Shown here: positions 1,878-40,600 of the stretch, one piece after another
Layout of the letters: each line of letters begins with the position of its first letter
Numbering within the stretch: the stretch's first letter is position 1
DNA from: Candidatus Omnitrophota bacterium
Lineage (GTDB): Bacteria > Omnitrophota > Gorgyraeia > Gorgyraeales > Gorgyraeaceae
Reading direction: 5' to 3'
NCBI GenBank assembly: GCA_030649895.1
Contig: JAUSEX010000020.1
Coordinates: 23,109 to 87,108, forward strand
DNA: 64,000 nt
Notes under the pieces: model-generated
The model's database searches: none
Seen by the model: the letters and a program-made list of their open reading frames with translations, nothing else
Told to the model about the DNA's origin: nothing
Translations under genes and position numbers: made by a program

Positions 1878-2810
1878 ATGATATCAGTAATTATTGTAAA
1901 TTACAACAGGAAAGATCTGTTAAGGCAATGCCTTGACTCTTTAAGAAGCCAGAGTTTTAAGGATATAGAAATTATAGTGGTGGATAATGCGTCAAAAGAC
2001 GGCAGCCTGGATATGCTGAAGGATGTTTATCCCGAGGTTAAATTGATACAAAATACGGATAACCTGCTTTTTTGCAGGGCGCAGAATCAGGGGGTAGAGG
2101 CGTCAACCGGCGATTTTATATTATGTTTGAATAACGACGTTATTCTGGACAGGGATTATTTGAAAGAGATGGTGTTCAGCGCAGGGTTAGAAGACAGGAT
2201 AGGCATGATTAGCGGCAAGATTTTAAGAACCGGCGGAAAGGTAATAGATTCTACAGGTTTATTTTTAGGCAGGAATAGAAAGGCGGTTGAAAGAGGTTAT
2301 GGTGAGATTGATAATGGGCGGTACGATAAGCCGGAATTTGTTTTTGGCGTAAGCGGATCTTGCGCGTTTTTAAGAAAAGGCATGCTGTTGGATCTGAAAG
2401 ACGAAAATGGCTATTTCGACGAAAGATTTGGGATGTATTACGAGGATCTGGATTTATGCTGGAGGGCGCAGAAAAAAGCCTGGAAAGCGTATTATAATCC
2501 GAATGCATTAGCGTATCACATGAGGGGAGGCACTGCAGCCGGCAGCAATCGCAAAACCTGGCCAGTATTTCATTATATAGGCCGGGATTTGAAAAAAAGA
2601 TATATTGTCAATAGATACAGATGCATAAGGAAAAACGATTCATTTTTAGGCTTTTTAATAAACTTGCCGTTCATATTATTTTACGAAATAAAGATGTATG
2701 GTTATTTAGCTCTTTACTTGGCCTTTGGCTTTGCTCGAACAATATTCTTCGAGCGAGCGAAGCGAGCCGAGAAGAAGAAAAATTTACTTGACCGTAATCC
2801 TTATGCATAG
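1878..2810 (+). CDS. Family 2 glycosyltransferase
   Basis: N-terminal VIIVNYNRKDLLRQCLDSL...IIVVDNASKDGS followed by DxD-region NNDVIL, typical of GT-A/GT2. The C-terminal 25 aa and the stop codon are encoded by a REP-like repeat (2714-2775). Confidence 0.8.
   Translation: MISVIIVNYNRKDLLRQCLDSLRSQSFKDIEIIVVDNASKDGSLDMLKDVYPEVKLIQNTDNLLFCRAQNQGVEASTGDFILCLNNDVILDRDYLKEMVFSAGLEDRIGMISGKILRTGGKVIDSTGLFLGRNRKAVERGYGEIDNGRYDKPEFVFGVSGSCAFLRKGMLLDLKDENGYFDERFGMYYEDLDLCWRAQKKAWKAYYNPNALAYHMRGGTAAGSNRKTWPVFHYIGRDLKKRYIVNRYRCIRKNDSFLGFLINLPFILFYEIKMYGYLALYLAFGFARTIFFERAKRAEKKKNLLDRNPYA
2714..2775. repeat. REP-like nested-palindrome element, copy 1 (CTTGACTTGGCCTTTGGCTTTGCTCGAACAATATTCTTCGAGCGAGCGAAGCGAGCCGAG)
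   Basis: Inner stem GCTCGAA/TTCGAGC around CAATATTC. Shares more than 80% identity with copies at 26705, 40507 and 24931. Provides the C-terminus and stop of the GT2 gene. Confidence 0.7.
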
Positions 2811-2835
2811 TATAATTTGAAATCGGAGGTAAAAA

Positions 2836-3102
2836 GTGATAGTAAAGGAAAGAAAAAAAGAGGTAATAAAGAAGTTTGCCGAACACGAAAAAGACACTGG
2901 CTCCTGTAACGTGCAGATAGCCATACTTACGGAGAGGATCAACGGCCTTACAGACCATTTTAAGTCCCATAAAAAGGACTTTAATTCAAGGGTCGGGCTT
3001 TTACGTATGGTTGGCAAGAGAAAAAAGCTTCTAGATTATCTTAAAAAAGAAAACCCGGAAAAATATCGCGAACTCGCTGATAAGTTGAGTTTGAAAAAAT
3101 AA
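2836..3102 (+). CDS. rpsO: 30S ribosomal protein S15
   Basis: 88-aa protein with GTG start. Sequence DTGSCNVQIAILTERINGLTDHFKSHKKDFNSRVGLLRMVGKRKKLLDYL is canonical S15. Followed by pnp, the conserved rpsO-pnp pair. Confidence 0.92.
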   Translation: MIVKERKKEVIKKFAEHEKDTGSCNVQIAILTERINGLTDHFKSHKKDFNSRVGLLRMVGKRKKLLDYLKKENPEKYRELADKLSLKK

Positions 3103-3107
3103 TGGAA

Positions 3108-3176
3108 GGCGGATTTAACGACCTGTTATTTGTTTTTAGATTTCAGGAGTAAAGGTCTTTAATTCCGCTTTTTTCA
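3108..3176 (+). terminator. rpsO terminator / pnp leader hairpin: nested stem-loop ending in a TTTTTTC run
   Basis: GGCGGATTTAA at 3111 pairs with TTAATTCCGC at about 3160. An inner GACCT/AGGTC stem is present, then a T6 tract. Placement matches the rpsO-pnp attenuator/RNase III hairpin region known in other bacteria. Confidence 0.4.
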
Positions 3177-3299
3177 TGATATCTGCGCAGGCTACCCGTT
3201 TCGACGAAGGCGTTGAGGCGAGGCGAAAAATCCGCTACATCAAAGCATAAGGGAATAGCGAATTTTAGTCTGCGTCTAATACAATAAAAAAGGAGACAT

Positions 3300-5381
3300 A
3301 TGATTCATAGAGTCGAAAGAAAAATAGGCAAAGAGACAATTATTATAGAAACAGGAAAGATGGCAAAACAGGCAAATAGCGCCGTGTGCGTCCGGTATGG
3401 GGGCACAGTGGTCCTGGTTACGGCTGTTTGCTCAAATGAACGAAGAGAAGGCATTGATTTCTTTCCTCTCACAGTGGAATATCAGGAAAAAACATACGCA
3501 GCGGGCAGGATCCCCGGAGGATATTTTAAGCGCGAAGGAAAACCCACTGAAAAAGAGATCTTAACCTCAAGGCTTATAGACAGGCCCATAAGGCCTCTTT
3601 TTCCGAAAGGTTTTATTAATGATGTCCAGGTTGTCGCTATGGTTCTTTCAAGCGACGGGCAAAATGATTCCGACATACTTGCGATCATAGGCGCTTCCTG
3701 CGCTTTAGCTATTTCCGATATACCTTTTATGGGGCCTATGGGAGCGGTAAGGATTGGTTTAGTGGCCGGAGAATTTGTGATCAACCCTACTTTCAAAGAA
3801 CTGGAAGAAAGTTCATTAAACATGGTTTCGGCGGGGCTTAAGGACAGGATTATAATGTTAGAGGCAGGAGCGAATCAGGTGTCGGAAGAGAAGATGCTTG
3901 AGGCGATAGAACTAAGCCAGGAATTTATAAAACTAAGCATAGAGCTTCAGGAAGAGCTTCAGAAAAAATGCGGCAAAGAGAAGATAAAGCCGGAATTGAA
4001 GCTTGTGTCCGGAGAACTGCTCGAAAAAGTAAAAAAACTTTCCCTGGAAGAGCTTAAAAAAATAAATTTGCTGCCCGCTAAAGAGCAGAGAGAAGATGCG
4101 TTCAATGTTTTAGCCAAGCAGATTGTGGAGAAAATGACTAAGGATGATGAGAATCTTAGCGAGGCTGACATTAAGAATGCGTTGCATGAAGTGGAAAAGA
4201 CCGAAGTCAGGAAGCATATTCTGGACAAAAAGATAAGGATAGACGCCAGGAAATATGAAGAAATAAGGCCGATAACCTGTGAAGTCGGGATTCTACCCAG
4301 GACTCATGGTTCAGGGCTTTTTACAAGAGGCCAGACCCAGAGTTTATCGATAACTACGCTTGGCACCAGCCAGGATGAGCAGAGGCTGGATACTCTTGAG
4401 GGCGAGAAATTCAAGAATTTTATGCTGCATTATAATTTTCCTCCTTTTAGCGTTGGAGAGGCAAGGCCGATGAGGGGCCCTGGCAGGCGCGAGATCGGGC
4501 ATGGCGCGTTAGCGGAAAGGGCGCTCAGGGCAGTTATGCCTTTAAATGCGGAATTTCCTTATACCGTAAGAATTGTTTCAGAGATACTTGAATCAAACGG
4601 TTCAAGCAGCATGGCAACTGTCTGCGCCAGCACTCTTTCCCTGATGGACGCAGGCGTCCCTATAAAAAAACCTGTTTCAGGTATAGCCATGGGCCTGGTA
4701 AAAGAAGGAAATGACGCGGCTATATTAACCGATATTGCCGGGTTAGAGGATCATTACGGGGATATGGATTTTAAAGTGACGGGAACCGACGCAGGCGTGA
4801 CTGCTTTGCAGATGGATCTTAAGATAGACGGGATAGACATGGACCTGATAAGAAGAATAATGAAACAGGCAACCCCTGCGAGGGCGTTTATTTTAAACAA
4901 GATCCTTGAAACGATAAACGCTCCCAGGACGGAACTCTCAGGGTATGCGCCCAGGATAACTACGCTGATGATAGACAAGGAAAAGATAGGCGCTTTAATA
5001 GGGCCCGGAGGCAAGATAATAAAAAAGATAATACAGGATACCGGCGCTACGATAGAAGTGGATGACGAAGGAAAGGTTTCAGTCGCTTCTGATAATGAAG
5101 AGGCTTCCAAAAAGGCGATCGATATGATAAAAGGTATTACAAGCGAGCCTGAGGTCGGGACGATTTACGAAGCTACTGTAAAAAAGATAATGAACTTCGG
5201 GGCGTTCTGCGAGATACTGCCAGGCAAAGAAGGCCTGGTGCATGTTTCCGAGCTCTCGGACAAGTTTGTTAAAAACGCAGAAGACGTTGTCAAGATCGGA
5301 GATAAAGTAAGAGTCAAGCTTATTAAAATAGATGAAATGGGCAGATTGAACCTGAGCATAAAACAGGCGATGGCCAGTTAG
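3300..5381 (+). CDS. pnp: Polynucleotide phosphorylase
   Basis: 693-aa protein with two RNase PH domains, KH and a C-terminal S1 domain (GKEGLVHVSELSDKFVKNAEDVVKIGDKVRVKLIKIDEMGRLNLS). Conserved position after rpsO. Confidence 0.96.
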   Translation: MIHRVERKIGKETIIIETGKMAKQANSAVCVRYGGTVVLVTAVCSNERREGIDFFPLTVEYQEKTYAAGRIPGGYFKREGKPTEKEILTSRLIDRPIRPLFPKGFINDVQVVAMVLSSDGQNDSDILAIIGASCALAISDIPFMGPMGAVRIGLVAGEFVINPTFKELEESSLNMVSAGLKDRIIMLEAGANQVSEEKMLEAIELSQEFIKLSIELQEELQKKCGKEKIKPELKLVSGELLEKVKKLSLEELKKINLLPAKEQREDAFNVLAKQIVEKMTKDDENLSEADIKNALHEVEKTEVRKHILDKKIRIDARKYEEIRPITCEVGILPRTHGSGLFTRGQTQSLSITTLGTSQDEQRLDTLEGEKFKNFMLHYNFPPFSVGEARPMRGPGRREIGHGALAERALRAVMPLNAEFPYTVRIVSEILESNGSSSMATVCASTLSLMDAGVPIKKPVSGIAMGLVKEGNDAAILTDIAGLEDHYGDMDFKVTGTDAGVTALQMDLKIDGIDMDLIRRIMKQATPARAFILNKILETINAPRTELSGYAPRITTLMIDKEKIGALIGPGGKIIKKIIQDTGATIEVDDEGKVSVASDNEEASKKAIDMIKGITSEPEVGTIYEATVKKIMNFGAFCEILPGKEGLVHVSELSDKFVKNAEDVVKIGDKVRVKLIKIDEMGRLNLSIKQAMAS

Positions 5382-5398
5382 TGGTAAAAATATAAGAT

Positions 5399-6148: not shown

Positions 6149-6202
6149 TAATTTCTTACCCAATTTACACTTCGTAAGTGTAAATTCAGAGGCGACTATA
6201 CA

Positions 6203-8461
6203 TTGAGCAAGGATAGAAAAGATCTCATGGTTTCAATAGGTTTGTTTGTCCTGGCGCTGTTACTATTGGCCGGGATGATTTCCTACTCGTCTTACGATAT
6301 CGGTTTCGAGACATCCACCCCTAATATACATATCCGCAATTATATAGGAATAACAGGCGCATATACTGCGTGGGCTATATTCAAGCTGATAGGCTATGCC
6401 GGATTTTTTATCCCGTTTCTCTTTATTGTATGGGGCATAGGGATTCTGGCAGAGAGGCTGACCGGAAAACTATTATACAGAATCCTTGGAATTTTATTTT
6501 TATTTTCAGCCAGTTCTGCGTTTTTCAGCTTGACGGCAAGGCCTGATTCGGTTTTGATGGTTGCAAGAGGCGGGCTTTTAGGGTATGTATTAGCGGACAG
6601 GTTTTTGCTGGATTATCTTGGGGCTATAGGCGGGTACATAGTTACGGTAAGTTTAACAATACTGGCGCTTTTAGTAGCCACAGAATTTCTAATAGTGCCT
6701 GTAATCTCTATTTTATTAATGAAAACATGGGCTATAGCGGATAAGATAGGCAGGCAAAAAAGAGAAAAAGGCGTTACCGGTCATGCAAAAACTGAAAAAT
6801 TTGTCAGTGGCCCGAGATTGAGGCCTGCTGTGAAGGTGGAAAAAGCAGCTCAAGGCTCAAGGCTCAAGGCTCAAGGGGAAGAGATAGAAGACAAAAAAGA
6901 GACCAATTCTAAGGACAGGCCGAGGATAAATATAATGTCGAAGCCTGCGGCTAAACCTAAACCCGCGCCTGCAAAAGCAGTAAAGCTTGAGCCGAGAGTC
7001 GTAGGCGATTATAAGCTTCCAAGCCTTGATTTATTGGACTCTCCCGTATTTAAGCCGGGAAGTATTTTTGGAGAAAATCTGGAAGAAAGCGCGAGAATAC
7101 TTGAAGATACGTTAAGGGATTTTGGAATAGAGTCAAAGGTCATTGATATAAGCAAGGGACCTGTTATCACAAGGTATGAGTTGCAGCCCGCGCCTGGGGT
7201 GAAAGTGAACAGAATCACTAGCCTTAACGATGACATAGCCCTTACCATGAAGGCAACCACCGTGAGGATAGTGGCGCCTATACCCGGAAAATCATGCGTC
7301 GGCATAGAAGTGCCTAACGCGGATACCTCAATGGTTTTCTTGAGGGAAATATTGGAATCCAGCGAGTTTCAGAAGATGGCGGCTTCTTCAAAGCTTGCAA
7401 TGGCTTTAGGAAAAGATATCTCAGGTAAATCTGTCGTAACGGATCTTGGAGACATGCCTCATCTTTTAATAGCGGGCACTACCGGTTCAGGAAAAACTGT
7501 TTGCGTGAATTCCTTGATAATGAGCATGGTCTATAACGCTACGCCTGAAGAATTGAAATTTTTAATGGTTGACCCTAAGATGGTGGAACTTGCTATATAT
7601 AATGGACTGCCGCATTTATTGTGCCCTGTTGTTACTGACGCTAAAAAAGTCGCAGGCGCGCTTGGGTGGGTTGTAGGCGAAATGGAAGCAAGATATAAAA
7701 TGCTGGCCAAGATAGCCGCGAGGAACATAACTTCATTTAATCAAAAATCAGAAGAAAAGCTCCCTTACATAGTTGTCATAATAGACGAATTGGCGGACCT
7801 TATGATGGTTGCCCAGGAAGATATCGAGAACGCTATTACGAGACTAGCCCAACTTTCAAGGGCGGTTGGCATTCATATGATACTCGCTACGCAAAGGCCG
7901 TCAGTGGATGTGGTAACCGGCGTAATAAAGGCGAATTTTCCTGCAAGGATCTCGTTTAAGGTTGCCTCAAAGGTTGATTCCAGGACAGTTCTTGATATGA
8001 ACGGCGCAGATAAGCTGCTGGGAAAAGGCGATATGTTATTCTTGGAACCGGGAAGCCCCAAGCCTGTAAGGGCTCAAGGCACGTATCTTACGGACCCTGA
8101 GATAGAAAAGGTCGTAAATTTTATAAAAGCCCAGCAGGAACCGGTATATGACAATGAGATACTCGAGCACCAGAAAAAAAGCGTTTCAGGAAGAGGCGGT
8201 TTTGAAAAAGATGATTTTTTTGAAGAAGCAGTGCAGATGGTGCTTGAAACAGGCCAGGCGTCTGTTTCAATGCTTCAGAGAAGATTAAGGCTTGGCTATA
8301 CGAGGGCTGCCAGGATAGTGGACGCGATGGAAGAAGAAGGCATAATAGGCCCTTTCAGAGGCTCTAAGCCCAGAGAGATATTGATACAGGAATACCAGCC
8401 AAAAGAAGAAGAGGCTGTTGCTAAAAAAGAAGAAGAAAACCAGGAACAGATATCTAGCTAA
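6203..8461 (+). CDS. ftsK: DNA translocase FtsK. The start could instead be ATG 6227.
   Basis: N-terminal TM helices and a Pro/Lys/Ala-rich linker. FtsK/SpoIIIE ATPase with GTTGSGKTV Walker A, then a C-terminal gamma domain (QASVSMLQRRLRLGYTRAARIVDAMEEEGIIGP). Contains an in-frame GCTCAAG x4 heptamer repeat at 6848-6875. Confidence 0.92.
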   Translation: MSKDRKDLMVSIGLFVLALLLLAGMISYSSYDIGFETSTPNIHIRNYIGITGAYTAWAIFKLIGYAGFFIPFLFIVWGIGILAERLTGKLLYRILGILFLFSASSAFFSLTARPDSVLMVARGGLLGYVLADRFLLDYLGAIGGYIVTVSLTILALLVATEFLIVPVISILLMKTWAIADKIGRQKREKGVTGHAKTEKFVSGPRLRPAVKVEKAAQGSRLKAQGEEIEDKKETNSKDRPRINIMSKPAAKPKPAPAKAVKLEPRVVGDYKLPSLDLLDSPVFKPGSIFGENLEESARILEDTLRDFGIESKVIDISKGPVITRYELQPAPGVKVNRITSLNDDIALTMKATTVRIVAPIPGKSCVGIEVPNADTSMVFLREILESSEFQKMAASSKLAMALGKDISGKSVVTDLGDMPHLLIAGTTGSGKTVCVNSLIMSMVYNATPEELKFLMVDPKMVELAIYNGLPHLLCPVVTDAKKVAGALGWVVGEMEARYKMLAKIAARNITSFNQKSEEKLPYIVVIIDELADLMMVAQEDIENAITRLAQLSRAVGIHMILATQRPSVDVVTGVIKANFPARISFKVASKVDSRTVLDMNGADKLLGKGDMLFLEPGSPKPVRAQGTYLTDPEIEKVVNFIKAQQEPVYDNEILEHQKKSVSGRGGFEKDDFFEEAVQMVLETGQASVSMLQRRLRLGYTRAARIVDAMEEEGIIGPFRGSKPREILIQEYQPKEEEAVAKKEEENQEQISS
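6848..6875. repeat. Perfect heptanucleotide tandem repeat (GCTCAAG)x4 inside ftsK
   Basis: Read directly. Encodes AQGSRLKAQG in the FtsK linker. Confidence 0.9.
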
Positions 8462-8462
8462 C

Positions 8463-8515
8463 GCTGTTCGAGCGAATCCTTAGGCCTAGCTCAGGACAGG
8501 TTTCGACTTGCTCGA
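8463..8515. repeat. REP-like element, copy 2, diverged, immediately 3' of ftsK
   Basis: GTTCGAGCGAATCCTTAGGCC...GGACAGGTTTCGACTTGCTCGAA shares the TTCGAGCGA / TTGCTCGAA arms and the GGACAGG core. Confidence 0.5.
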
Positions 8516-8527
8516 AAAATATTAATT

Positions 8528-9319: not shown

Positions 9320-9335
9320 TGCCCCTCCCGCCCTA

Positions 9336-16396: not shown

Positions 16397-19006
16397 ATGA
16401 ATGTTGACGAGATAAGAGAAAGATATTTAAGTTTTTTTAAGGCAAGAGGCCACAGGATCTATCCGAGCGATTCGCTTGTGCCGGCTAATGATCCGTCGCT
16501 TTTGTTTACAGGCGCTGGCATGAACCAGTTTAAGGAAGAATTCCTGGGCAGGGTTAAGGGGTCGGCTAGGGCGGCTACGTGCCAGAAATGCATCAGGACG
16601 GGAGATTTGAAAAACGTAGGCAGGACAGCTGGGCATCATACATTTTTTGAAATGCTGGGCAATTTTTCTTTCGGGGATTATTTTAAGAAAGACGCTATCT
16701 TATGGGCGTGGGAATTTCTTGTAAAAGAGCTTGGCATTAAAGAAGAAGATTTATGGATTTCTGTCTATAAGGAGGATAAAGAGGCGTATGAGATATGGAG
16801 GGATACGGTAAAAATCCCGGAGCGGAAGATTTTAAAGTTAGGCGAAAAAGATAATTTCTGGCCGTCCAATGCCCCCAGCGACGGGCCTGACGGACCATGC
16901 GGCCCGTGTTCCGAGATATTTTTCGGCGGGCCTGACGGCGCAGAGATATGGAATCTTGTTTTTACGCAATTTGACAGAAAAGACGGAGGCAGATTAGAGC
17001 CGCTGCCCTGCAAGAATATAGATACCGGCATGGGCCTGGAAAGAATTGCCAGGGTAATGCAGGGCAAGAAGACGAATTTTGAGATAGATTCTTTTGTAAC
17101 TATCATAGAAGCTATAATAAACCTATCCCGTTCTCCGAACGGGAACGGAGAAGAAGACCTTTCTGTTCCCGTTCGGAGAACGGGAACCGGTCAAAATGTG
17201 AATGCGATTGCGGACCATATAAGGGCTGTGACTTTTGCAATATCTGACGGGGTCCTGCCTTCAAATGAAGAAAGGGGTTATGTAATACGAAAACTTATAA
17301 GGAAGGCATTTTGGTACGGGAGAAGCCTGGGCATTGACAAGCCCTTTTTATACAAGATAGTCCCTGTGGTGGCGCAAGTTATGAAAAGGCCTTATCCTGA
17401 AGTTGCGGATCACAGGGAGAGTATAAGCCAGATAGTGATGGAAGAGGAAAAAAGATTTAAAAATACAATAGACGAAGGTACCGAAAGATTGAAAACAATG
17501 CTGACCGAATCCAAGGAATCAGGCGTTTTATCTGGAGAGCATATATTTAAATTGTATGACACTTACGGATTTCCATGTGAATTAACGCAGGAGATAGCAG
17601 GCGTTGAAAATATAAAAGTGGATATAGAGGGTTTTAAAGCGCTTATGGAAAACCAGCGCTCTATATCAAAACAAGGGAGTAAGATCGCGGGCAATATATT
17701 TAACGTGGAAGGGAACATCAATATAAAGCTGCCCGATGCCGCTCGTTTTATAGAAGATAAGGAAGACATAAAAACCCAGGTAGTTCAAATAATTTCAGAA
17801 GGTGACTTGAAAAATGAGATAGGCAAAAGGGACAAGGCCAGCATTTTTTTAAAAGAAACTGTTTTTTATGGCGAAAAAGGCGGGCAGGTAGGCGATAAAG
17901 GGGTAATTTTAAAAGACGAAAAGATAATCGCGGACGTGATAAACGTTATTGATATAGCAGGCAGGGCGCAGCATGAAATAGAGATGAAAGAAGGTGTTTT
18001 AAAAACCGGGGACAGCGTTACCGCAAAGGTTGATATCGGCCGCAGGGAAGACATAAAGAAAAACCACACCGCTACGCACCTTCTGCATAATGCACTGAGA
18101 AAGGTTTTGGGCATGCACGTAAAACAGGCAGGGTCCATGGTAGCGCCGGACAGGCTGCGTTTTGATTTTTCGCATTTTAAGGCAGTCACAAAAGAAGAGC
18201 TTTTAAGAATAGAAGAGATAGTAAATGAGAACATAAGGAAAGATTCCGTGGTCAGCATAGATGAGCTGAGCATGGAAGAGGCTAAGAAAAAAGATGTAAT
18301 AGCGCTTTTCGGAGAGAAATACGGGGATGTGGTGAGGATGGTGTCCGCGGGCGATTATTCCAGAGAGTTATGCGGCGGGACTCATGTAAAAAGGACAGGC
18401 GAAATAGGCGTTTTTAAAATTATCTCCGAGTCTTCTATCGCCAGCGGGATGAGAAGGATCGAAGCTGTTACAGGTAGAACAGCTTATGAGCGGATAAAAC
18501 AGGAAGAGGCTGTTATAAAGGATATTGCGCGGGAATTAAATGTAAAACCGGAGGATATAGCTAAGGAAATAGAAAAATTGGCAAACAGATTAAAACAGAT
18601 GGAAAAAACCCTCGAAGTTTTTATCAATAAAAACGCTCAGGATAACGTAAATAGCCTTTTTGGATCGATGAAAAAAATAAAAGGCATCGATGTGATAATC
18701 GGCAGCATTAAAAATGCAGATTCTTCTTTATTGAGAAAAAACGCGGACCTGTTAAGAGACAGGCTTGTAAACGGTATATTTATGCTTGCGGCTGAAGCGG
18801 ACGGAAAGATCGCGATTATAGTAGGCGCTGGAAAATCGCTTCAGCCCGGAAAGATCGATGCGGTGAAAATTTTAAATGATATAGGTGCTGATTTTGGGAT
18901 AAAAGGCGGTGGCAGGCAGGATTTTGCTCAAGCAGGCAGCCGCTCAGGCCCTAGGCTTCAGGATATATTAAAAAAAGCGGAAGGGATTATAGAGGGGTAT
19001 ATATGA
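16397..19006 (+). CDS. alaS: Alanine--tRNA ligase
   Basis: 869-aa canonical AlaRS: catalytic domain, editing-domain HxxxH/CxxxH (HTATHLLH...CGGTHV) and C-Ala domain. Contains an in-frame 58-nt palindromic element at 17127-17184. Confidence 0.97.
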   Translation: MNVDEIRERYLSFFKARGHRIYPSDSLVPANDPSLLFTGAGMNQFKEEFLGRVKGSARAATCQKCIRTGDLKNVGRTAGHHTFFEMLGNFSFGDYFKKDAILWAWEFLVKELGIKEEDLWISVYKEDKEAYEIWRDTVKIPERKILKLGEKDNFWPSNAPSDGPDGPCGPCSEIFFGGPDGAEIWNLVFTQFDRKDGGRLEPLPCKNIDTGMGLERIARVMQGKKTNFEIDSFVTIIEAIINLSRSPNGNGEEDLSVPVRRTGTGQNVNAIADHIRAVTFAISDGVLPSNEERGYVIRKLIRKAFWYGRSLGIDKPFLYKIVPVVAQVMKRPYPEVADHRESISQIVMEEEKRFKNTIDEGTERLKTMLTESKESGVLSGEHIFKLYDTYGFPCELTQEIAGVENIKVDIEGFKALMENQRSISKQGSKIAGNIFNVEGNINIKLPDAARFIEDKEDIKTQVVQIISEGDLKNEIGKRDKASIFLKETVFYGEKGGQVGDKGVILKDEKIIADVINVIDIAGRAQHEIEMKEGVLKTGDSVTAKVDIGRREDIKKNHTATHLLHNALRKVLGMHVKQAGSMVAPDRLRFDFSHFKAVTKEELLRIEEIVNENIRKDSVVSIDELSMEEAKKKDVIALFGEKYGDVVRMVSAGDYSRELCGGTHVKRTGEIGVFKIISESSIASGMRRIEAVTGRTAYERIKQEEAVIKDIARELNVKPEDIAKEIEKLANRLKQMEKTLEVFINKNAQDNVNSLFGSMKKIKGIDVIIGSIKNADSSLLRKNADLLRDRLVNGIFMLAAEADGKIAIIVGAGKSLQPGKIDAVKILNDIGADFGIKGGGRQDFAQAGSRSGPRLQDILKKAEGIIEGYI
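17127..17184. repeat. Double-hairpin palindromic element CCCGTTCTCCGAACGGGAAC-N18-GTTCCCGTTCGGAGAACGGG inserted in frame in alaS
   Basis: The two 20-nt arms are perfect reverse complements, and each arm is itself a hairpin (CCCGTTC/GAACGGG). Encodes SPNGNGEEDLSVPVRRTGT within AlaRS. A relative lies at 21474. Confidence 0.8.
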
Positions 19007-23411: not shown

Positions 23412-24929
23412 TTGGAGCGGTTGAAAATGCATTATCCGTCAAAACAAGAATTTGTAAAATTAGCTGAGAAAGCTAATATAATACCTGTCTATAAAGAAAT
23501 ATTGGCAGATACATTGACGCCTGTTTCCGCCTTTCAGAAAATAGGCGGAGGATATTCGTATCTGCTGGAGTCTGTCGAAGGCCAGGAGAAGATAGCAAGA
23601 TTTTCATTTATAGGCATAGAGCCTTCTCTGATATTAAAAAGCAAAGGGAATTCTATCGAGATAAATAAAAACGGCAGGGTTAAAAAATATTTTACAGACG
23701 ATCCGTTAAAAGAAATTGAGAAAGTAATGAGTTCTTTTAAGGCAGCTGAAGTAAAAGGTCTTCCGAGGTTTTCAGGAGGCATGGTGGGGTATATGGGGTA
23801 CGATATGGTGAGGTTTTTTGAAAACCTGCCTGATAAAAATCCAGATAACTTAAAGATCCCGGATTCTGTATTCATGATGGCGGATAGCCTCGTGATATTT
23901 GATCACTCTACGCATAAGGTTAAGATAGTGATAAACGCGTATCTGGCTCAGGGCTTCCCCCGGCTTCGCTCGGGACAGGCAAGGCTCAAGGCTCAAGGGA
24001 TATACGAAAAAGCGGTAGAAAAGATAGAAGAGATTATAAAGAAATTAAACAAGCCTGAGAAAAAGCAAAAGGCAAAAATAAAAAGCAAAAAGCGCAAGAT
24101 GGAATCAAACTTTACAAAAAAAGAATTCGAAGGCTTGGTTAAAAGAGCGAAGGAATACATAAGGGCCGGGGATATAATACAGGTTGTGCCGTCGCAAAGA
24201 TTTCATACAAGGCTGAACTGCGGGCCGTTTGATGTTTACCGCTCTCTCAGGTCTTTAAATCCGTCGCCTTACATGTATTATTTAAATTTCGATGAACTGC
24301 AAATCGTAGGGTCGTCTCCTGAGCTTTTAGTAAGGTGCGAGGATGGTATAGTTGAGACCAGGCCCATAGCAGGCACGAGGCCGAGAGGCAGAAGCGAAGC
24401 TGAGGATAAAAAATTAGAGGAAGAACTTTTAGCTGACGCGAAAGAAAGGGCGGAGCATGTGATGCTGGTGGATCTTGGCAGAAATGATATAGGCAGGGTC
24501 TGCAAGCCTGGCAGCGTCAAGGTAACGGATTTTATGTTTATAGAAAAGTATTCTCATGTTATGCATATTGTTAGTAACTGCAAGGGCGTTTTGGATGAGA
24601 ATAAGAATTCGTTTGATGTTTTACGGGCGTGTTTTCCGGCGGGCACCGTATCAGGCGCGCCAAAGGTCAGGGCAATGGAAATAATAGACGAGCTTGAGAA
24701 TACAAGAAGAGGTTATTACGCCGGAGCAGTGGGGTATTTCAGCTTTTCCGGGAATATGGACACATGTATAACTATAAGGACGATGCTAGTCAAAGGGAAA
24801 GATGCTTTTATCCAATCAGGCGGAGGAATAGTGGCTGACTCTATCCCGTCTAAGGAATATCAGGAGACAGTGAATAAAGCAAAAGCAATGGTTAAGGCAA
24901 TTGAGATAGCCGAGAAAGGATTAGATTAA
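23412..24929 (+). CDS. trpE: Anthranilate synthase component I
   Basis: 505-aa chorismate-binding enzyme (SPELLVR...IAGTRPRG...GAVGYF). Carries an in-frame insert of a roughly 50-nt GC-rich repeat at 23948-23999. Confidence 0.9.
23948..23999. repeat. Roughly 50-nt GC-rich mosaic element with GCTCAAG heptamer repeats, in frame in trpE
   Basis: CAGGGCTTCCCCCGGCTTCGCTCGGGACAGGCAAGGCTCAAGGCTCAAGGG is near-identical to 45481-45534 in nadC. Translates [15 protein letters not shown]. Confidence 0.75.
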
Positions 24930-24930
24930 G

Positions 24931-25000
24931 CTTCTCGACTAAGCCGCTTCGTGGCTTCGCTTGAAGAGTGTTGTTCGAGCGAACGAAGCGAGTCGAGAAC
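24931..25000. repeat. REP-like element, copy 3, in the trpE-trpG spacer
   Basis: CTTCTCGACTAAGCCGCTTCGTGGCTTCGCTTGAAGAGTGTTGTTCGAGCGAACGAAGCGAGTCGAGAAC has outer stem TTCTCGACT/AGTCGAGAA and inner arms. Confidence 0.65.
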
Positions 25001-25013
25001 ATAGGAGCAAAAT

Positions 25014-25636: not shown

Positions 25637-26701
25637 ATGGAGATTGTTATGATTCGTGAAGCTATAGGCAAAATAGTAGATGGGTTGGATCTAACGCGAG
25701 ACGAGATGATTTCCTGCATGAATGAAATCATGACTGGCATTGCAACCCAGGCCCAGATAGGAAGTTTTATTACAGCCCTTAGGCTTAAGGGAGAGACAGT
25801 GGAAGAGATTACAGGCGCTGCTATTGTGATGCGGGAAAAAGCTACCAGGATAAACATTGCCGCTAACCTGATAGGCGCAAGCAAGGATGATATAGCTATA
25901 GACAGGGGGACGATTATAGACACATGCGGGACAGGCGGAAGCGGGGTCAATACCTTTAATATTTCAACAACGGTTGCTTTCGTAGTCAGCGGCGCAGGTT
26001 TGAGAGTGGCTAAACATGGAAATCGGGGCGTTTCAAGTGTATGTGGAAGCGCGGATGTCATCAAGGCACTAGGCGTAAACATAGAAATCCCGGCTGAAAA
26101 GGTAAGAGAATGTATAGAAAAGATAGGCATAGGATTTTTATACGCGCCTTCTTTTCATAATGCAATGAAGTTTGCGATAGGGCCCAGGAGAGAGATAGGC
26201 ATAAGGACGATATTCAATATACTCGGCCCTCTTACGAATCCTGCGAATGCCACGTGCCAGGTCCTGGGAGTATATGAAGAAGAGCTTACGGATAAGCTGG
26301 CAAATGTACTTAATAACCTGGGGACTAAAAGGGCGTTTGTTGTATATGGCATGGATGCGCTCGACGAGATAACTATAACAGGCAAAACTAAAATCAGCGA
26401 GCTAAAAAATAAAAAGGTAAAAGGGTATTACATAAAACCTCAGGACTTTGGCATGAAGAGAGCGGATCTCTTAGACATAAAAGGCGGGACTATAGAAGAG
26501 AACGCCGGTATTGTAAAAAAGGTCCTTGAGGGAGAAAAAGGCCCGAGGCAGGATGTAGTGCTGTTAAACGCGTCTGCCGCGCTTATTGCAGGCGGGATGG
26601 CAAAGGATTTTAAAGACGGGATTGAAATAGCCCGGGATTCGATTAAATTCGGCAGGGCAAAAGAGAAACTGGACAAGCTGGTAGAGCTTACAAATAAATA
26701 G
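25637..26701 (+). CDS. trpD: Anthranilate phosphoribosyltransferase
   Basis: IDTCGTGGSGVNTFNISTTVAFVVSGAG..KHGNRGVSS is the TrpD signature. Confidence 0.9.
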   Translation: MEIVMIREAIGKIVDGLDLTRDEMISCMNEIMTGIATQAQIGSFITALRLKGETVEEITGAAIVMREKATRINIAANLIGASKDDIAIDRGTIIDTCGTGGSGVNTFNISTTVAFVVSGAGLRVAKHGNRGVSSVCGSADVIKALGVNIEIPAEKVRECIEKIGIGFLYAPSFHNAMKFAIGPRREIGIRTIFNILGPLTNPANATCQVLGVYEEELTDKLANVLNNLGTKRAFVVYGMDALDEITITGKTKISELKNKKVKGYYIKPQDFGMKRADLLDIKGGTIEENAGIVKKVLEGEKGPRQDVVLLNASAALIAGGMAKDFKDGIEIARDSIKFGRAKEKLDKLVELTNK

Positions 26702-26704
26702 TTT

Positions 26705-26790
26705 GGTTCTCGACTTGGCCTTTGGCCTTGCTCGAACAATATTTTTCGAGAGGATATTTTCGATTATACATGTAAGCCTAGTCGAAAAGA
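26705..26790. repeat. REP-like element, copy 4, in the trpD-trpC spacer
   Basis: GGTTCTCGACTTGGCCTTTGGCCTTGCTCGAACAATATTTTTCGAG...GCCTAGTCGAAAAG. The track ORF 26703-26903 here is an artefact of the repeat. Confidence 0.7.
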
Positions 26791-26796
26791 CAAGAT

Positions 26797-27594
26797 ATGA
26801 AAAATTTTCTGCAGAATATAATTATATTAAAGAGAAAAGAAATAGAAGCGTTAAAATCCAAAAGGCCTATTACGGAATTCATCGATTCAAAGCGTCTCTC
26901 TAGGGGTATAAGGCCGTTCAAAGAAGCTATCTCCGGAGGGGACGGCCTGAATCTTATCGCAGAGATAAAAAAGAAATCTCCTTCTTTCGGGAGGAATTTT
27001 TTCAGAAAACTGGACATAGCAGGAATAGCCAATACCTATAAAAAAGAAGGCGCCAGCGCCATGTCGGTCTTAACGGATAAGAAGTTTTTCAGCGGGAACA
27101 TCCTGCATATAAACGAAGTGAAGCGCGCCGTAGACCTCCCTGTACTGAGAAAGGATTTTATAATAGATGAATACCAGGTTTACGAGTCCCGTTATTTCGG
27201 CGCGGACGCGATACTTTTGATCGCCAGGATCTTATCAGTGGACCAGATAAAGAGTTTTATGCTTCTCGCGAAAAAGATTAATATGGACGCCATTGTAGAG
27301 ATCCATAATGAGAATGACTTGCAGAAGGCTTTATTGGCCAGTCCGGAGATAATAGGCGTGAACAACAGAGACCTGGACACTATGGAGATATCCATAGAAA
27401 ACACCTTAAGGCTTGTTCCTAAGATTCCTAAAGAGATAGTGACGGTAAGCGAAAGCGGTATATCCAACAATGAAGACATAGAGAAAATAAAGAAAACAGG
27501 GGTAAGCGCGGTATTGATAGGCGCGGCATTTCTTGAATCAGAGGATATAGCGGGCAGGGTGCGAAAGGTGATGGGTAATGAGAGTAAGGGTTAA
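26797..27594 (+). CDS. trpC: Indole-3-glycerol phosphate synthase
   Basis: IAEIKKKSPS...LRKDFIIDEYQVYESR...NNRDL motifs of IGPS. Confidence 0.9.
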   Translation: MKNFLQNIIILKRKEIEALKSKRPITEFIDSKRLSRGIRPFKEAISGGDGLNLIAEIKKKSPSFGRNFFRKLDIAGIANTYKKEGASAMSVLTDKKFFSGNILHINEVKRAVDLPVLRKDFIIDEYQVYESRYFGADAILLIARILSVDQIKSFMLLAKKINMDAIVEIHNENDLQKALLASPEIIGVNNRDLDTMEISIENTLRLVPKIPKEIVTVSESGISNNEDIEKIKKTGVSAVLIGAAFLESEDIAGRVRKVMGNESKG

Positions 27595-31839: not shown

Positions 31840-31874
31840 CCGCGTTTTATATTTAACAACCAAGAGGCATTAAT

Positions 31875-35892: not shown

Positions 35893-37835
35893 GTAAGAAG
35901 ATTTTGATAGTGGATGACGAGATAGACATTACCTTGGTTTTGAAAGAATTTTTTATATCGAAGGGCTATGAGGCGCTTGCTGCGTTTAACGGCAGGGAAG
36001 CGGTAGGCTTTTTAAATCAGCCTGGCATAGATCTTATTTTATTGGATATGCAGATGCCGGATATGAGCGGGTTAGAGGTATTAAAGGAAGCGAGAAAAAT
36101 ACACAAAGACACGAAGATAATAGTATTGACGGGTTTTTCAGAGGAATATAAAGAAGAAGCGGAAAAGATAGGATGTGATGCGTTTCTGACAAAACCATTT
36201 TCCATAAGAACGCTTATAACTGCAGCAGAGTCTGTCCTGACCGGTAAAGAAGAAGGTAGAAGCGATATAGCGACTCTTATGGAAGATGATAATGTATTAG
36301 CGAAGGCGAAACTCCTTTTTATTGAGCCAAACGAAATAACATACGGCTCGAAATTATCGTATTTCCGGGATTTGAAACATTGCAAAGGCAGGTATCGGGT
36401 AGCAGCGGCTTTCACGGAAAACGAGGCTATGAAAAAGCTGGAAGAATTTAAACCTGACATTGTATTGAGCGATATAGGCGTATTCAGGTTATATAAGCTG
36501 AGAGATAAGATTTTAAAGATGCAAAGCCCTGCAAAAGATATAATATTATACGGCCTTTCCCCTGACGCCAAGGATTCGTTGAAAAACGGCTATGCCTCGT
36601 TTGTCGGGGGCCTGTTTGATCCGATAACTGCTATGGTTAGCCCGGAAGAAATGGATAGGCTGGGAAAAATTGTCCGCAGGGCAGCGATGGAACATGGTTT
36701 GTATAAAAGTCAGGAAACAGAAACCGAGCAATTTTACAACTATCATAAAGTCCTCCTGGAAGCCAGTAAAGGCATGGTGCTTATAACTGACACAAGCAAG
36801 TTGTTGTATCTTATTGTATACGTAGTGAAAAAACATATGAAGCTAAAAAGCGCGTGCATATTTTATTATGATGAACAGGACAAGAGTTTTGTCCTAACGT
36901 GTAAGCGCGGAGAAAGCGATGCGCAAAGAGGCTACAGGATAGGCGATTCGCACCCTTTTATAAAATGGTTAAAGGACAGGCAAAGCGGGTTTTCATATAA
37001 TAAAGACGATTTTATGAATCTGCCTGATGTCGGAAACGAACTGGAGAAGCTTGGCTGCGCAGCGTGCGTGCCGAGTTTTAATAAAGACAAGCTTATAGGA
37101 TTTTTGATTTTGGGCAATAAACTGTCGGGTGATTCGTACGCGAGGGAGGAGCTGGAGTTATTGTTAACCATTTCTAACGAAGCCGCTATTGTAATAGAAA
37201 ACGCTAAAAATGTCTTTGAACTGCAGAAATTAAGGGAAAAAGAGAAAGAAAATTATTTTCAGACAATTCTCGCCTTAGCCAGGACAGTGGATGAAAAAGA
37301 CGCTTATACGCGTGGCCATTTGGATGAGGTTACCAGGTATGGGGTGATAGTGGCGGAAGAACTGACGGAATCTTTAAAAATAAATATAGACATGGAAGAA
37401 TTGAAGACAGCGCTTCTTCTTCACGATATAGGAAAGATTGGCGTGCCTGACGCGCTGCTTCATAAAATATCCAGCCTGACGCCCGAAGAGTTTGAAATAA
37501 TGAAACAGCATTCTGCAATAGGCGCAAGGATTATCGAGCCTATAGAGAAACTGAAAAAGATAGGCAGGATCATAAAACATCACCAGGAAAAATATAACGG
37601 CACAGGTTACCCCGACGGACTTAAAGGCGAGGATATCCCCCTTGAGTCCAGGATAGTGGCTGTGGTGGATGCGTATCACGCAATGATATCGGACAGGCCT
37701 TACAGAAAGGCCCTGCCCGAAGATACGGCCTTGAATGAGCTCAGGAGCTGCAGAGGCACGCAATTCGACCCTTTGATAGTAGATGCGTTTCTCAGGGCTT
37801 ATGAAAAAGGTAAAATAGTAAAGCGTAAAATTTAG
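35889..37835 (+). CDS. REC-(REC-like)-GAF-HD-GYP c-di-GMP phosphodiesterase-type response regulator (RpfG-like)
   Basis: N-terminal REC (ILIVDDEIDI...DLILLDMQMPDMSGLEVL), a second degenerate receiver, a GAF-like domain, and a C-terminal HD-GYP domain (LLHDIGKIGVPD ... HHQEKYNGTGYPDGL). Confidence 0.85.
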   Translation: MSKKILIVDDEIDITLVLKEFFISKGYEALAAFNGREAVGFLNQPGIDLILLDMQMPDMSGLEVLKEARKIHKDTKIIVLTGFSEEYKEEAEKIGCDAFLTKPFSIRTLITAAESVLTGKEEGRSDIATLMEDDNVLAKAKLLFIEPNEITYGSKLSYFRDLKHCKGRYRVAAAFTENEAMKKLEEFKPDIVLSDIGVFRLYKLRDKILKMQSPAKDIILYGLSPDAKDSLKNGYASFVGGLFDPITAMVSPEEMDRLGKIVRRAAMEHGLYKSQETETEQFYNYHKVLLEASKGMVLITDTSKLLYLIVYVVKKHMKLKSACIFYYDEQDKSFVLTCKRGESDAQRGYRIGDSHPFIKWLKDRQSGFSYNKDDFMNLPDVGNELEKLGCAACVPSFNKDKLIGFLILGNKLSGDSYAREELELLLTISNEAAIVIENAKNVFELQKLREKEKENYFQTILALARTVDEKDAYTRGHLDEVTRYGVIVAEELTESLKINIDMEELKTALLLHDIGKIGVPDALLHKISSLTPEEFEIMKQHSAIGARIIEPIEKLKKIGRIIKHHQEKYNGTGYPDGLKGEDIPLESRIVAVVDAYHAMISDRPYRKALPEDTALNELRSCRGTQFDPLIVDAFLRAYEKGKIVKRKI

Positions 37836-37844
37836 GAGATACTT

Positions 37845-39053
37845 ATGAAATATATTGTTCTCGTTGGAGACGGAATGGGCGACAGGCCCATTGAAGATCT
37901 TGGCGGCAAGACCGTGCTTGAGGCGGCAAAGATTCCTAATATGAATTTTATAGCTGAGAATGGCAAGGTGGGGCTTACAAACATGATCCCGTCCAGGATG
38001 TTGCCTGCAAGCGACGTGGCGAATCTTTCTATACTCGGATATAACCCTAAAAAATACTACACGGGACGCGGTCCGCTGGAAGCGGCGAATATGGGCATAG
38101 ACCTGAAGGAGGACGAGGTGGCGTTCAGGTGTAACCTTGTGACTATTTCAGGCGAGAGAATGGCGGATTACAGCGCAGGCCACATATCAAATGAGGAAGC
38201 AAAGTCTATAATAAAGGAGCTGAATTTCAAGCTGGGCTCTGATGATATAAAATTTTATCCCGGCGTAAGCTACAGGCATCTTATGATTTTTAAATGCAAA
38301 GATAAAAGTGTCCAGGAAGGGTTTGTGAATGCAAAGTGCACTCCGCCTCACGATATAGCGGGAAAGATAATAAACAGGTTCCTTCCCGCGAGGACTCCTC
38401 AGGCAGAGATACTAAAAAGATTGATGGATGAATCTAAAAAGATTTTAGCAGACCATGATGTGAACAGGGTAAGGCTTGATTTAAAAGAAAATCCCGCTAA
38501 CATGATATGGTTGTGGGGCCAGGGCGTAAGGTCTTTTATGCCGAAATTTTCAAAGCTTTATCACGTGGAAGGTTCTATTATTTCAGCGGTTGACCTTATA
38601 AAAGGCATAGGGAGGATTATCGGGCTGGATGTTATAGACGTGCCAGGGGCTACCGGATATTACGATACGAATTATTTAGGCAAGGCAGAGTATGCCATTG
38701 ATTCTCTGAAACATAAGGATTTTGTGTTTGTTCATGTGGAGGCCCCTGACGAGGCTGGCCATAACGGGGATCTGAGAGAAAAGATTTACAGCGTAGAAAA
38801 ATTTGATAAGTTCGTAGTGGGGACCATACTGAGCCATTTCAAGGCCTCTAAAGAAGAATTCAGGATAATGGTTTTATATGACCACGCTACGCCGGTAGCG
38901 TTAAAAACCCATTCCCGGGACCATGTTTGTTTCGCTATGTACGGTACTGATATTGAACAAGGGGCAATAAAGCATTTCAACGAAAAAGAAGCCCGCCTGA
39001 CAAAATTCCGCATAGATAAGGGCCACGAGTTAATGGAATTCTTCATAAAATAA
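37845..39053 (+). CDS. apgM: Cofactor-independent phosphoglycerate mutase, archaeal type
   Basis: MKYIVLVGDGMGDRP...AKIPNMNF...HVEAPDEAGHNGD metalloenzyme motifs of ApgM/PhosphMutase. Confidence 0.8.
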   Translation: MKYIVLVGDGMGDRPIEDLGGKTVLEAAKIPNMNFIAENGKVGLTNMIPSRMLPASDVANLSILGYNPKKYYTGRGPLEAANMGIDLKEDEVAFRCNLVTISGERMADYSAGHISNEEAKSIIKELNFKLGSDDIKFYPGVSYRHLMIFKCKDKSVQEGFVNAKCTPPHDIAGKIINRFLPARTPQAEILKRLMDESKKILADHDVNRVRLDLKENPANMIWLWGQGVRSFMPKFSKLYHVEGSIISAVDLIKGIGRIIGLDVIDVPGATGYYDTNYLGKAEYAIDSLKHKDFVFVHVEAPDEAGHNGDLREKIYSVEKFDKFVVGTILSHFKASKEEFRIMVLYDHATPVALKTHSRDHVCFAMYGTDIEQGAIKHFNEKEARLTKFRIDKGHELMEFFIK

Positions 39054-39104
39054 CCTGATTTTACAATTTGCGCCAGCGCTGTTCGTAAAGCCAGGATACT
39101 GTCT

Positions 39105-39170
39105 GAAAATTTTGCTGTCCGCTCAAATGCGCCTAAGGCCCAAGCCGGCTTGAGCGAATGAACGTATTTT
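39105..39170. repeat. REP-like element, copy 5, diverged, upstream of lysC
   Basis: GGCTTGAGCGAATGAACGTATTTTCGAAAGCC has inner arms like the other copies. Confidence 0.4.
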
Positions 39171-39280
39171 CGAAAGCCTGCCGGAACTGGCTATTACGTA
39201 ATATGTTATCTGGCTATTCAAATGGCAATTTCAAATATTTTAATAGATTATTTTTGGCATATGTGGTAATATTTATCGAT

Positions 39281-40504
39281 ATGGGAAAACGTTTGATTGT
39301 TCAAAAATATGGCGGCAGTTCTGTAGCGAATACAGACAGGATAAAAAGTGTAGCGAACCGCATCGCAAAATACAAAAAGCAAGGCTATAATGTGGTGGTG
39401 ATAGTTTCCGCTTTAGGCGATACTACCGACGAATTGTTGGAACTTGCGGGACAGATAACGGATAAGCCAAGCGATAGAGAATTAGATATGCTCATATCTA
39501 CTGGCGAACAGGTGTCTGTGGCGCTTCTGGCAATGGCGCTACATAAGATAGGGGTTGATGCAATATCTTTTACAGGCCCTCAGGTAGGCATAATAACGGA
39601 CCGCACTCACACAAAGGCTAAGATCCTGAAGATAAGCGCTGACAGGATCAAGGGGCAGATCAATAAGGGCAGGGTTGTTATAGTGGCGGGCTTTCAGGGT
39701 ATGAACGCTGATCAGGAGATCACTACTCTTGGCAGGGGCGGTTCGGACCTTACCGCTGTCGCTATTGCTACAACGCTAAATGCTGACATGTGCGAGATAT
39801 ATACTGACGTTGAAGGTGTCTATACAGCTGATCCCAGGATCGTAAAAGACGCGAAAAAACTTTCCGTTATCAGTTATGAAGAGATGCTTGAGCTGGCTTC
39901 TCTGGGCGCGCAGGTTATGCAGGCCAGGTCCATGGAGGTCGCGAAAAAATATTCAGTATCGCTGCATATACGGTCAAGTTTTACGAATGAAGAAGGGACG
40001 ATTATTTCAAAGGAGGTTAAGGCGATGGAAGATGTTCTTGTGAGCGGGGTGACTGCAAATAAAGGCGAGGCAAAGGTGACTATCTGCGATGTCCCTGACA
40101 GGCCCGGAATAGCAGCGAAAATATTCACGGATATAGCAAGGCATGATATAAACGTTGATATGATAATTCAGAATATAAGCAGAAAAGGTTACACGGATCT
40201 CTCTTTTACGGTACCCGTGGCTGAGCTTAATAAGGCGAAAGATATGATGTCTAAAATAGTGAGATCCGTGAAGGCGAAAGGCGTGGTGTATAATAATGAG
40301 ATTGCCAAGGTTTCTATAGTCGGCGTAGGCATGAAGACGCATTCCGGGGTCGCGGCGAAGATGTTCGGGGCACTGGCCTCAAAAAAGATAAACATAGACA
40401 TGATTTCAACCTCTGAAATCAAGATATCGTGCGTGATAAATAAAAGATATGCGGATAAAGCGGTGATCGCGCTGCATAAGGCGTTTGGATTGGGGAAGAA
40501 ATAG
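39281..40504 (+). CDS. lysC: Aspartate kinase (monofunctional, two ACT domains)
   Basis: LIVQKYGGSSV...VVVIVSALGDTTDEL and tandem C-terminal ACT domains. The ORF track starts 41 codons earlier in the same frame (39158); I call ATG 39281. Confidence 0.9.
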   Translation: MGKRLIVQKYGGSSVANTDRIKSVANRIAKYKKQGYNVVVIVSALGDTTDELLELAGQITDKPSDRELDMLISTGEQVSVALLAMALHKIGVDAISFTGPQVGIITDRTHTKAKILKISADRIKGQINKGRVVIVAGFQGMNADQEITTLGRGGSDLTAVAIATTLNADMCEIYTDVEGVYTADPRIVKDAKKLSVISYEEMLELASLGAQVMQARSMEVAKKYSVSLHIRSSFTNEEGTIISKEVKAMEDVLVSGVTANKGEAKVTICDVPDRPGIAAKIFTDIARHDINVDMIIQNISRKGYTDLSFTVPVAELNKAKDMMSKIVRSVKAKGVVYNNEIAKVSIVGVGMKTHSGVAAKMFGALASKKINIDMISTSEIKISCVINKRYADKAVIALHKAFGLGKK

Positions 40505-40506
40505 GA

Positions 40507-40600
40507 TTCGCTTCTTGACTTGGCCGATTTGTGGCCTCGCTCGAAGAATAATATTGTTCGAGCGGACACCAATGTTTTGTTTATAAGCCCAGTCGAAAAC
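40507..40600. repeat. REP-like element, copy 6, in the lysC-cimA spacer
   Basis: TTCGCTTCTTGACTTGGCCGATTTGTGGCCTCGCTCGAAGAATAATATTGTTCGAGCGGACACC...GCCCAGTCGAAAAC. Confidence 0.65.

Follow-up and report, generated by a model that had tools for sequence, protein, structure and literature searches.

A modular palindromic repeat in operon spacers and genes of Omnitrophota

INTRODUCTION

Rickettsia palindromic elements (RPEs) are ~100–150 nts long, depleted in stop codons, and alter protein termini and linkers; the R''/R' boxes of integron attC sites have the consensus RYYYAAC / GTTRRRY. RPEs were reportedly described by Ogata et al. in 2000 as palindromes inserted in frame in protein genes, including housekeeping genes, and translated. 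For most repetitive extragenic palindromes (REPs), a GTAG/CGTC tag next to the stem has been described (PMC3733652). Here we analyse a family of nested palindromic repeats in a window of 64,000 nts (the whole stretch examined; 42% G+C) from a Candidatus Omnitrophota metagenome-assembled genome (MAG), where copies lie within the trp operon, at the ends of other genes and inside coding sequences. Literature searches turned up work on REPs and REP-associated tyrosine transposases (RAYTs), and nothing on this repeat family.

We favour, with a probability of roughly 0.7, the reading that this is a non-autonomous mosaic palindromic repeat working like REPs, bacterial interspersed mosaic elements (BIMEs) and RPEs. 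Its unusual points are the conservation of its scaffold across phyla and its swappable hairpin modules.

RESULTS

Copies of the repeat in the window

A preliminary description of this DNA had listed six copies. An nhmmer profile built from four of these sites and run over the window matched at 2701–2783, 24922–25003, 26698–26799 and 40502–40600, with E-values from 1.5e-23 to 2e-18. The repeat family is genuine and its four canonical copies are robust; profile and scaffold scans also bore out that nested palindromes are dispersed at gene ends. The copies, together with one hairpin that was set apart from them, are as follows.

2709–2774, forward strand: canonical copy, G..C/C..G orientation, with mini-hairpin modules and a decayed outer left arm; E 1.5e-23; translated as residues 278–299 of a GT2 glycosyltransferase
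24931–25000, forward strand: canonical copy, C..G/G..C orientation; E 1.2e-20; folding energy −36 kcal/mol
26706–26789, forward strand: canonical copy, G..C/C..G orientation; E 1.9e-22; 13-nt left hairpin and 27-nt right module
40511–40600, forward strand: canonical copy, C..G/G..C orientation; E 2e-18; enlarged loop and 26-nt right module
8467–8522, forward strand: decayed permuted (‘inside-out’) copy, TTCGAGCGA ... TCGACT TGCTCGAA AAATATT
44083–44144, forward strand: decayed in-frame copy in valS; partial nhmmer match at 44082–44119, E 3.5e-6; absent from the preliminary description
39105–39160, forward strand: hairpin outside the family; no nhmmer match; shuffle z +0.09

As previously claimed, the copies share inner and outer arms. 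In all four canonical copies, inner arms (T)CGCTCGAA / TTCGAGCG(A) surround an AATATT loop, and the outer arms TTCTCGACT / AGTCGAGAA are common to all four, in decayed form (CTCTTTACT) in the copy at 2709–2774. Positions 2705–2753 and 26702–26750 are 88% identical, and both orientations of the element are present in the window. The copy at 24931–25000 has the trpE stop codon (24927–24929) upstream and the trpG start (25014) downstream. The copy at 26706–26789 lies between the trpD stop (26699–26701) and the trpC start (26797), and that at 40511–40600 between the lysC stop (40502–40504) and the start of the following gene (40618). The site at 8463 belongs to the family only in a decayed form with its boxes in reversed order: the copy, flanked by the ftsK stop (8461) and the start of the gene that follows (8528), gave only weak profile matches over 8460–8524 (E 0.014 and 0.22).

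The sixth site, at 39105, was rejected as a member: it is a generic CGCTCAA/TTGAGCG hairpin, no better than shuffles. Thus, of the copies placed on either side of lysC, the downstream one stands and the upstream one does not. In the same region (39054–39290), the lysC open reading frame (ORF) start at 39158 is probably too early, since the AA_kinase domain starts at residue 46; this leaves a leader of ~200 nts with no Rfam match.

Nine-letter arm words occurred at chance level (TTGCTCGAA with 1 mismatch gave 17 matches versus 19.9 expected); since short arm words alone do not exceed chance, it is the complete architecture that carries the signal. Relaxing the box-pair search brought up no further copies in the window.

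Distribution across genomes

The preliminary description had made the reality of the family depend on further copies genome-wide, and more than 100 were found elsewhere. Species-representative genomes scanned with the inner hairpin GCTCGAANAATATTNTTCGAG yielded at least 109 further stretches carrying it. Among the matches listed, most stretches come from at least 13 Omnitrophota species genomes (one a single-cell genome), a single MAG supplies more than 25 contigs, and the repeat is also present in ~9 Patescibacteria genomes and in a few MAGs with odd labels. In 0.8 Mb of matched loci we counted 167 non-overlapping nhmmer matches, and 110 by the strict scaffold pattern. A scan of viral contigs gave 0 matches. 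The repeat is spread through Omnitrophota genomes and sporadically into Patescibacteria. In two loci from different Patescibacteria classes (L062 ~4150–4185 and L114 ~3665–3700), a palindrome TACCGACCTGCWWGCAGGTCGGAGGT follows the element by ~15 nts, which suggests a larger composite unit.

Modular anatomy of the element

The scaffold reads X-TTCTCGACT-[P2]-CGCTCGAA-S-AATATT-S-TTCGAGCG-[P4]-AGTCGAGAA-X. Its minimal form of 44 nts, flanking X bases included, corresponds to a 17-bp stem and an 8-nt loop. At the four asymmetric positions, 46 copies have G,C,C,G and 41 have its reverse complement, C,G,G,C; we are therefore dealing with one oriented element seen on either strand. P2 and P4 are interchangeable hairpin modules of limited repertoire, located at two mirror-image points: 9-nt mini-hairpins of the GCGAAGC type, 13-nt GGCC-TTCG-GGCC, 17–19-nt GTCCGCC-N4-GGCGGAC, 22-nt GTCCCG...CGGGAC, 26-nt modules whose mutual pairing produces a 96-nt long palindrome, and the largest ones of 33 and 36 nts. 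Identical mini-hairpins were also found within a different palindrome family.

Each half-unit consists of TTCTCGACT-[optional module]-CGCTCGAA, and the usual element of two inverted half-units, joined head-to-head via S-AATATT-S (canonical) or tail-to-tail via 0–13 nts (permuted). The common permuted form is ATATT-S-TTCGAGCG-[P4]-AGTCGAGAA-(0-13 nt)-TTCTCGACT-[P2]-CGCTCGAA-S-AATAT. Tandem arrays of half-units were also seen, as well as arrays of whole units with a fixed 11–12-nt spacer. Permuted forms and arrays thus identify the repeating unit as the half-site, organised in inverted doublets or arrays as in BIMEs.

Such an organisation could also be read as a duplex-DNA site for a conserved host protein (nucleoid protein, gyrase or IHF-like, as at Escherichia coli BIMEs) or as an uptake or recombination signal. 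The dyad symmetry with two strongly conserved boxes per half-site, the near-identity of the scaffold across phyla, the symmetric pattern of stem mismatches (see below) and the BIME-like arrays of alternating orientation are all in its favour. It nevertheless leaves unexplained how copies multiplied, why orthologous sites are patchily occupied and why copies lie in frame in essential genes, and no candidate protein was identified; we consider it improbable.

The core contains no stop codon in any of the six frames, a property matched by 1% of palindrome-preserving shuffles, and a copy has on average 4.25 open frames versus 2.0–2.4 in controls. Owing to this near absence of stop codons, the element is read through and becomes protein.

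Genomic context and strand symmetry

Genes in the loci were called by a crude longest-ORF rule (coding fraction 0.92). Among 106 oriented copies, 58 had co-directional genes on either side, 3 had convergent and 3 divergent ones, and 30 lay inside ORFs; background gene pairs comprised 630 co-directional, 73 convergent and 60 divergent ones. Intergenic copies almost fill the spacer, typically starting 0–20 nts past the stop codon and ending 5–40 nts ahead of the next start. Relative to the flanking genes, the G..C/C..G form was sense in 43 cases and antisense in 15 (p = 3e-4). Copy length modulo 3, compared between ORFs and spacers, was uninformative.

This location raises the question of a functional cis-acting intercistronic RNA, an mRNA stabiliser, RNase III or processing site, or partial terminator, selected for operon stoichiometry. 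In tandem genes, the element fits tightly between a stop codon and the ribosome-binding site that follows, which agrees with such a role, as do the 43:15 orientation bias, the conservation of the scaffold in distant genomes and the very stable folds: folding energies of the two best copies are −29 and −36 kcal/mol, with z of −3.3 and −4.3 versus shuffles. The strands themselves tell against it. Stem mismatches are symmetric with respect to the transcribed strand (G.T 10, A.C 11), with no preference for G-U over A-C in the sense strand, and sense and antisense folding energies do not differ; together these observations speak against selection acting on a single RNA strand. The window has copies in both orientations, and many copies lie in frame within coding sequences. 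Also, no T-tract follows the element, and whole elements were not called as intrinsic terminators. Rfam 15 yielded only two tRNAs in the window and no family matching the element, and a permissive Rfam scan of copy-rich loci gave only sub-threshold generic hairpin matches.

The flanks are A/T-rich, and A-rich on the 3′ side (GAAT, GTAA). In a flank logo of 104 oriented copies, position 0 was G in 99/104, position −1 mostly A (55) or T (29) and position −2 T (47) or A (28), with no preference for G at −3 (21/104). In ~30% of copies, regardless of context, the first base of the element completes a TAG; the GTAG/CGTC tag of REPs is absent from this logo. We observed no excess of direct repeats that would betray a target-site duplication, at 64 boundary offsets and for lengths of 2–7 nts.

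These last results bear on a classical miniature inverted-repeat transposable element (MITE), that is, a DDE insertion sequence (IS) derivative with an internal deletion, moved by cut-and-paste via terminal inverted repeats of the TTCTCGACT type. Long terminal inverted repeats, small size, lack of coding capacity, high copy number and AT-rich flanks are what a MITE would present. A target-site duplication is missing at any offset, however, and permuted forms and half-unit arrays are a misfit for an element with fixed ends. Furthermore, 1.25 Mb of loci contained no full-length parent, with a gene between such ends, and no gene flanked by orphan half-sites. A MITE is thus highly improbable.

The trp operon junctions in relatives

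We compared the trpE-trpG and trpD-trpC junctions of 80 loci encoding TrpD relatives; TrpD of the close relatives is 83–89% identical to that of the window. In the close relatives the trpD-trpC junction is either a 7-nt spacer or filled with other elements; it is reduced to TAA-CGAT-ATG in L120, L121 and L124. It carries the element with the same right module (TTCGATTATACATG[T/A]AAGCC) in the window, L123 and L131, with three different left modules, which suggests recombination between copies via the conserved boxes. Unrelated palindromes fill this junction in L118, L122, L128, L125, L129 and L138. At trpE-trpG, stop and start codons overlap (TTATGA) in four relatives and a TTGACAC...GTGTCAA palindrome occupies the spacer in others, the element being present in the window only.

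According to the TrpD tree, the element-filled sites are not monophyletic, and their history must therefore include losses, repeated insertion or recombination. Since the junctions of relatives are empty or hold unrelated palindromes, the trp copies appear as inserted DNA, not as a conserved regulator. The earlier suggestion that they act as stabilisers or partial terminators thus receives no comparative support, and a selected role of the element as intercistronic RNA is unlikely.

Across L116–L139, both junctions either lack an insert or contain palindromic or tandem elements of at least five unrelated kinds, including TTGACACTCTGACATTGTCAGAGTGTCAA, GTTTACAAAACGAG..., GGGACAAGG arrays and (GTTTTGA)n. 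The trpE-trpG and trpD-trpC spacers are insertion hot spots.

Protein segments encoded by the repeat

Two features define the GT2 locus.

1878–2810, forward strand: GT2 glycosyltransferase ORF; conservation ends at Y276, followed by a tail of repeat (residues 278–299) and of rpsO promoter DNA (residues 300–310)
2788–2816, forward strand: rpsO promoter-like site TTGACC-17-TATAAT, 13 nts 3′ of the repeat, conserved in L001, L003 and L004

It had been proposed that the repeat supplies both the C-terminus and the stop codon of GT2. Residues 278–299 (ALYLAFGFARTIFFERAKRAEK) are indeed repeat-encoded, but the stop codon (2808–2810) is outside the repeat, 34 nts downstream and within the rpsO promoter. 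The comparison of orthologous C-termini called for at the time agrees with this: most orthologues have 282–297 aa and conservation stops at Y276, the tail standing out against orthologues of 287–290 aa. The peptide (..LARTIFFER.KRVEKKK..LDRN) terminates orthologues P0019 and P0026, is truncated in P0017 and P0034 (~63–65% identical to the GT2 of the window) and persists in decayed versions in P0064 and P0011. At the DNA level, the element, intact or decayed, has the same position and orientation in L004, L001 and L003, 13–14 nts upstream of TTGACC-17-TATAAT, and the gene order GT2-rpsO-pnp-bacA-ftsK is kept in related contigs. The closest relative, P0002 (84% identical, 287 aa), is separated from rpsO by 29 nts according to gene coordinates, and so has no room for the element. 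The rpsO promoter and leader (2788–2836) are conserved in L001, L003 and L004 (GT2 ~63–67% identical), and the GT2 3′ end overlaps the promoter in several.

Similarly, the hypervariable linker of the window valyl-tRNA synthetase (ValRS) reads DDFSTRPAASLGEYSAPGTSLE, a decayed copy. At this position orthologue P0126 has an intact copy read in a different frame (DDSSRLRSKNNIVRASGASRE), and the insert is missing from P0123, P0124 and P0129. In Patescibacteria loci, copies interrupt domains of a SpoU methylase and of a P-type ATPase. As with RPEs, copies are thus in frame in conserved genes and absent from orthologues (GT2, ValRS, SpoU, P-type ATPase). The ORF 26703–26903, reading VLDLAFGLARTIFFER..., is spurious, in agreement with the remark that the repeat fools ORF finders. 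Within the window, then, the repeat is responsible for a longer GT2 C-terminus, for a spurious ORF and for a remnant in ValRS.

A second palindrome family (GATTGCTTCG...CTCGCAATGAC, with peptides such as CHCEGAKRPKQS...LLRFARND) lies in frame inside some GT2 orthologues (P0016, P0017, P0019, P0026, P0052, P0064 and P0068; alignment columns 255–285) and also fills the trpD-trpC junction of L118 (4056–4154).

Other repeats in the window

Other repeat families are translated in linkers, namely the trpE inter-domain linker (23945–24004), the ORF 44968–45852 (at 45488–45539) and the ftsK linker (6847–6882), where GCTCAAGG is repeated four times in frame. The ORF 16397–19006 contains an in-frame palindrome at 17118–17185 with 24-nt arms that are 96% complementary. 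Another palindrome of a different family (47957–48035; 35-nt arms, 80% complementary, 9-nt loop) straddles the stop codon of the ORF 45998–48013, the next gene being at 48055. Finally, a partly conserved leader of up to 82 nts lies directly 5′ of three tRNA genes (52086–52167, 59108–59173 and 59731–59812); the first and third are 83% identical over 82 nts and share two ~25-nt blocks with the second. It may be a tRNA promoter or leader. A second shared segment is found nearby in inverted form (51995–52039 / 59435–59479).

DISCUSSION

Possible mobilisation of the repeat

Under the mobile-repeat reading that we prefer, the element would be copied or moved in trans by an enzyme for which the conserved boxes, folded as a hairpin or cruciform, are the recognition site. 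An HUH/Y1 transposase (RAYT or IS200-like) would be the most likely type of mobiliser, given the missing target-site duplication, the hairpin-based structure and the strand bias. Copies are seen in very short spacers between co-directional genes, at gene 3′ ends and in permissive linkers inside genes; modules would be exchanged between copies by recombination. A stem-loop this stable (−20 to −36 kcal/mol) in polycistronic RNA may happen to impede 3′ exonucleases or serve as an RNase III target; such a role in mRNA decay may be a side effect rather than a conserved function.

All-against-all clustering of 861 neighbouring ORFs returned housekeeping families only. An HUH/Y motif scan of 3175 ORFs gave one Y1_Tnp (L015 2829–3479), not flanked by the element. 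It is carried by a MAG labelled Gammaproteobacteria and is 86% identical to Daviesbacteria proteins; its homologues number more than 7800, and where a source is named it is mostly Daviesbacteria or another group of Patescibacteria. The contig probably comes from Patescibacteria, and the transposase has the look of a gene that is conserved and domesticated.

Several points weigh against the preferred reading. No transposase was found, and no protein family recurs within 8 kb of the copies; the sole Y1 transposase seen is a member of a conserved Daviesbacteria family and lies 4.4 kb away from a copy. The patchy presence of the element at orthologous sites could reflect ancient insertions and later losses rather than active transposition. 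For selfish REP-like DNA, it is unusual that a 44-nt scaffold stays nearly identical from one phylum to another, and a host function could be the reason. In addition, MAG binning errors may inflate the cross-phylum range, and with crude longest-ORF calls some copies ‘inside genes’ are possibly artefacts.

A more specific proposal can be made from the same features. The boxes would be the site of a novel structure-specific enzyme common to Omnitrophota and Patescibacteria, acting on a branched three- or four-way-junction cruciform with exchangeable hairpin-arm cassettes. The near-identity of the scaffold would then stem from recent horizontal traffic between two phyla of ultra-small groundwater bacteria, and the stop-free design would have been selected for colonising coding DNA in compact genomes. 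We offer this as a speculation, and a rather unlikely one.

Consequences for gene calls and genomes

The family makes spurious ORFs, false C-terminal extensions and odd inserts in proteins of Omnitrophota and of the candidate phyla radiation, and modelling it would improve gene calls and MAG-derived protein families. Assemblies are also broken by it, as many copies lie at contig ends. More generally, several palindromic DNA families are tolerated, and perhaps exchanged, by uncultivated ultra-small bacteria even though their genomes are very compact; these families land in operon spacers and essential genes. Conserved boxes, swappable hairpins and permuted doublets, together with the lack of REP and MITE hallmarks, point to a mobilising enzyme not yet matched to its substrate.

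Comparison with known systems

The label ‘REP-like’ given to the repeat is justified for its behaviour, not for membership. Like the RAYT-mobilised REP, REPIN and BIME sequences of Proteobacteria, it is a short, high-copy extragenic palindrome. Its units form long hairpins as inverted doublets, as in REPINs (doublets of REPs), its mosaic arrays have alternating orientation and defined linkers, as in BIMEs, and, like REPs, it lacks a target-site duplication and is placed after genes inside operons. In contrast to REPs, it has no GTAG/CGTC tag, a flanking T-A-G being found in ~30% of copies only, and no RAYT association was found in the loci examined. Its half-unit is not a conserved hairpin: conserved boxes flank a variable one. 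Furthermore, its scaffold is conserved across phyla whereas REPs are lineage-specific, and in-frame coding copies are frequent.

With Correia/NEMIS, ERIC, RUP and BOX the repeat shares the character of small non-coding inverted repeats co-transcribed with their neighbours, and BOX is modular too. It differs from these MITEs by the lack of target-site duplication and of an identifiable parent IS, and by its permuted forms. Like integron attC sites, the repeat is an imperfect palindrome with a variable centre between conserved outer boxes, found right after ORFs in co-directional arrays. The boxes of the repeat, however, do not match the R''/R' consensus, both orientations occur, and its neighbours are syntenic genes of housekeeping operons, not cassettes.

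Finally, the repeat resembles RPEs in being palindromic, translated in frame, depleted in stop codons and able to alter protein termini and linkers. The two differ in sequence and host, which are unrelated, and the present repeat is mainly intergenic, modular and shorter (44–100 nts).

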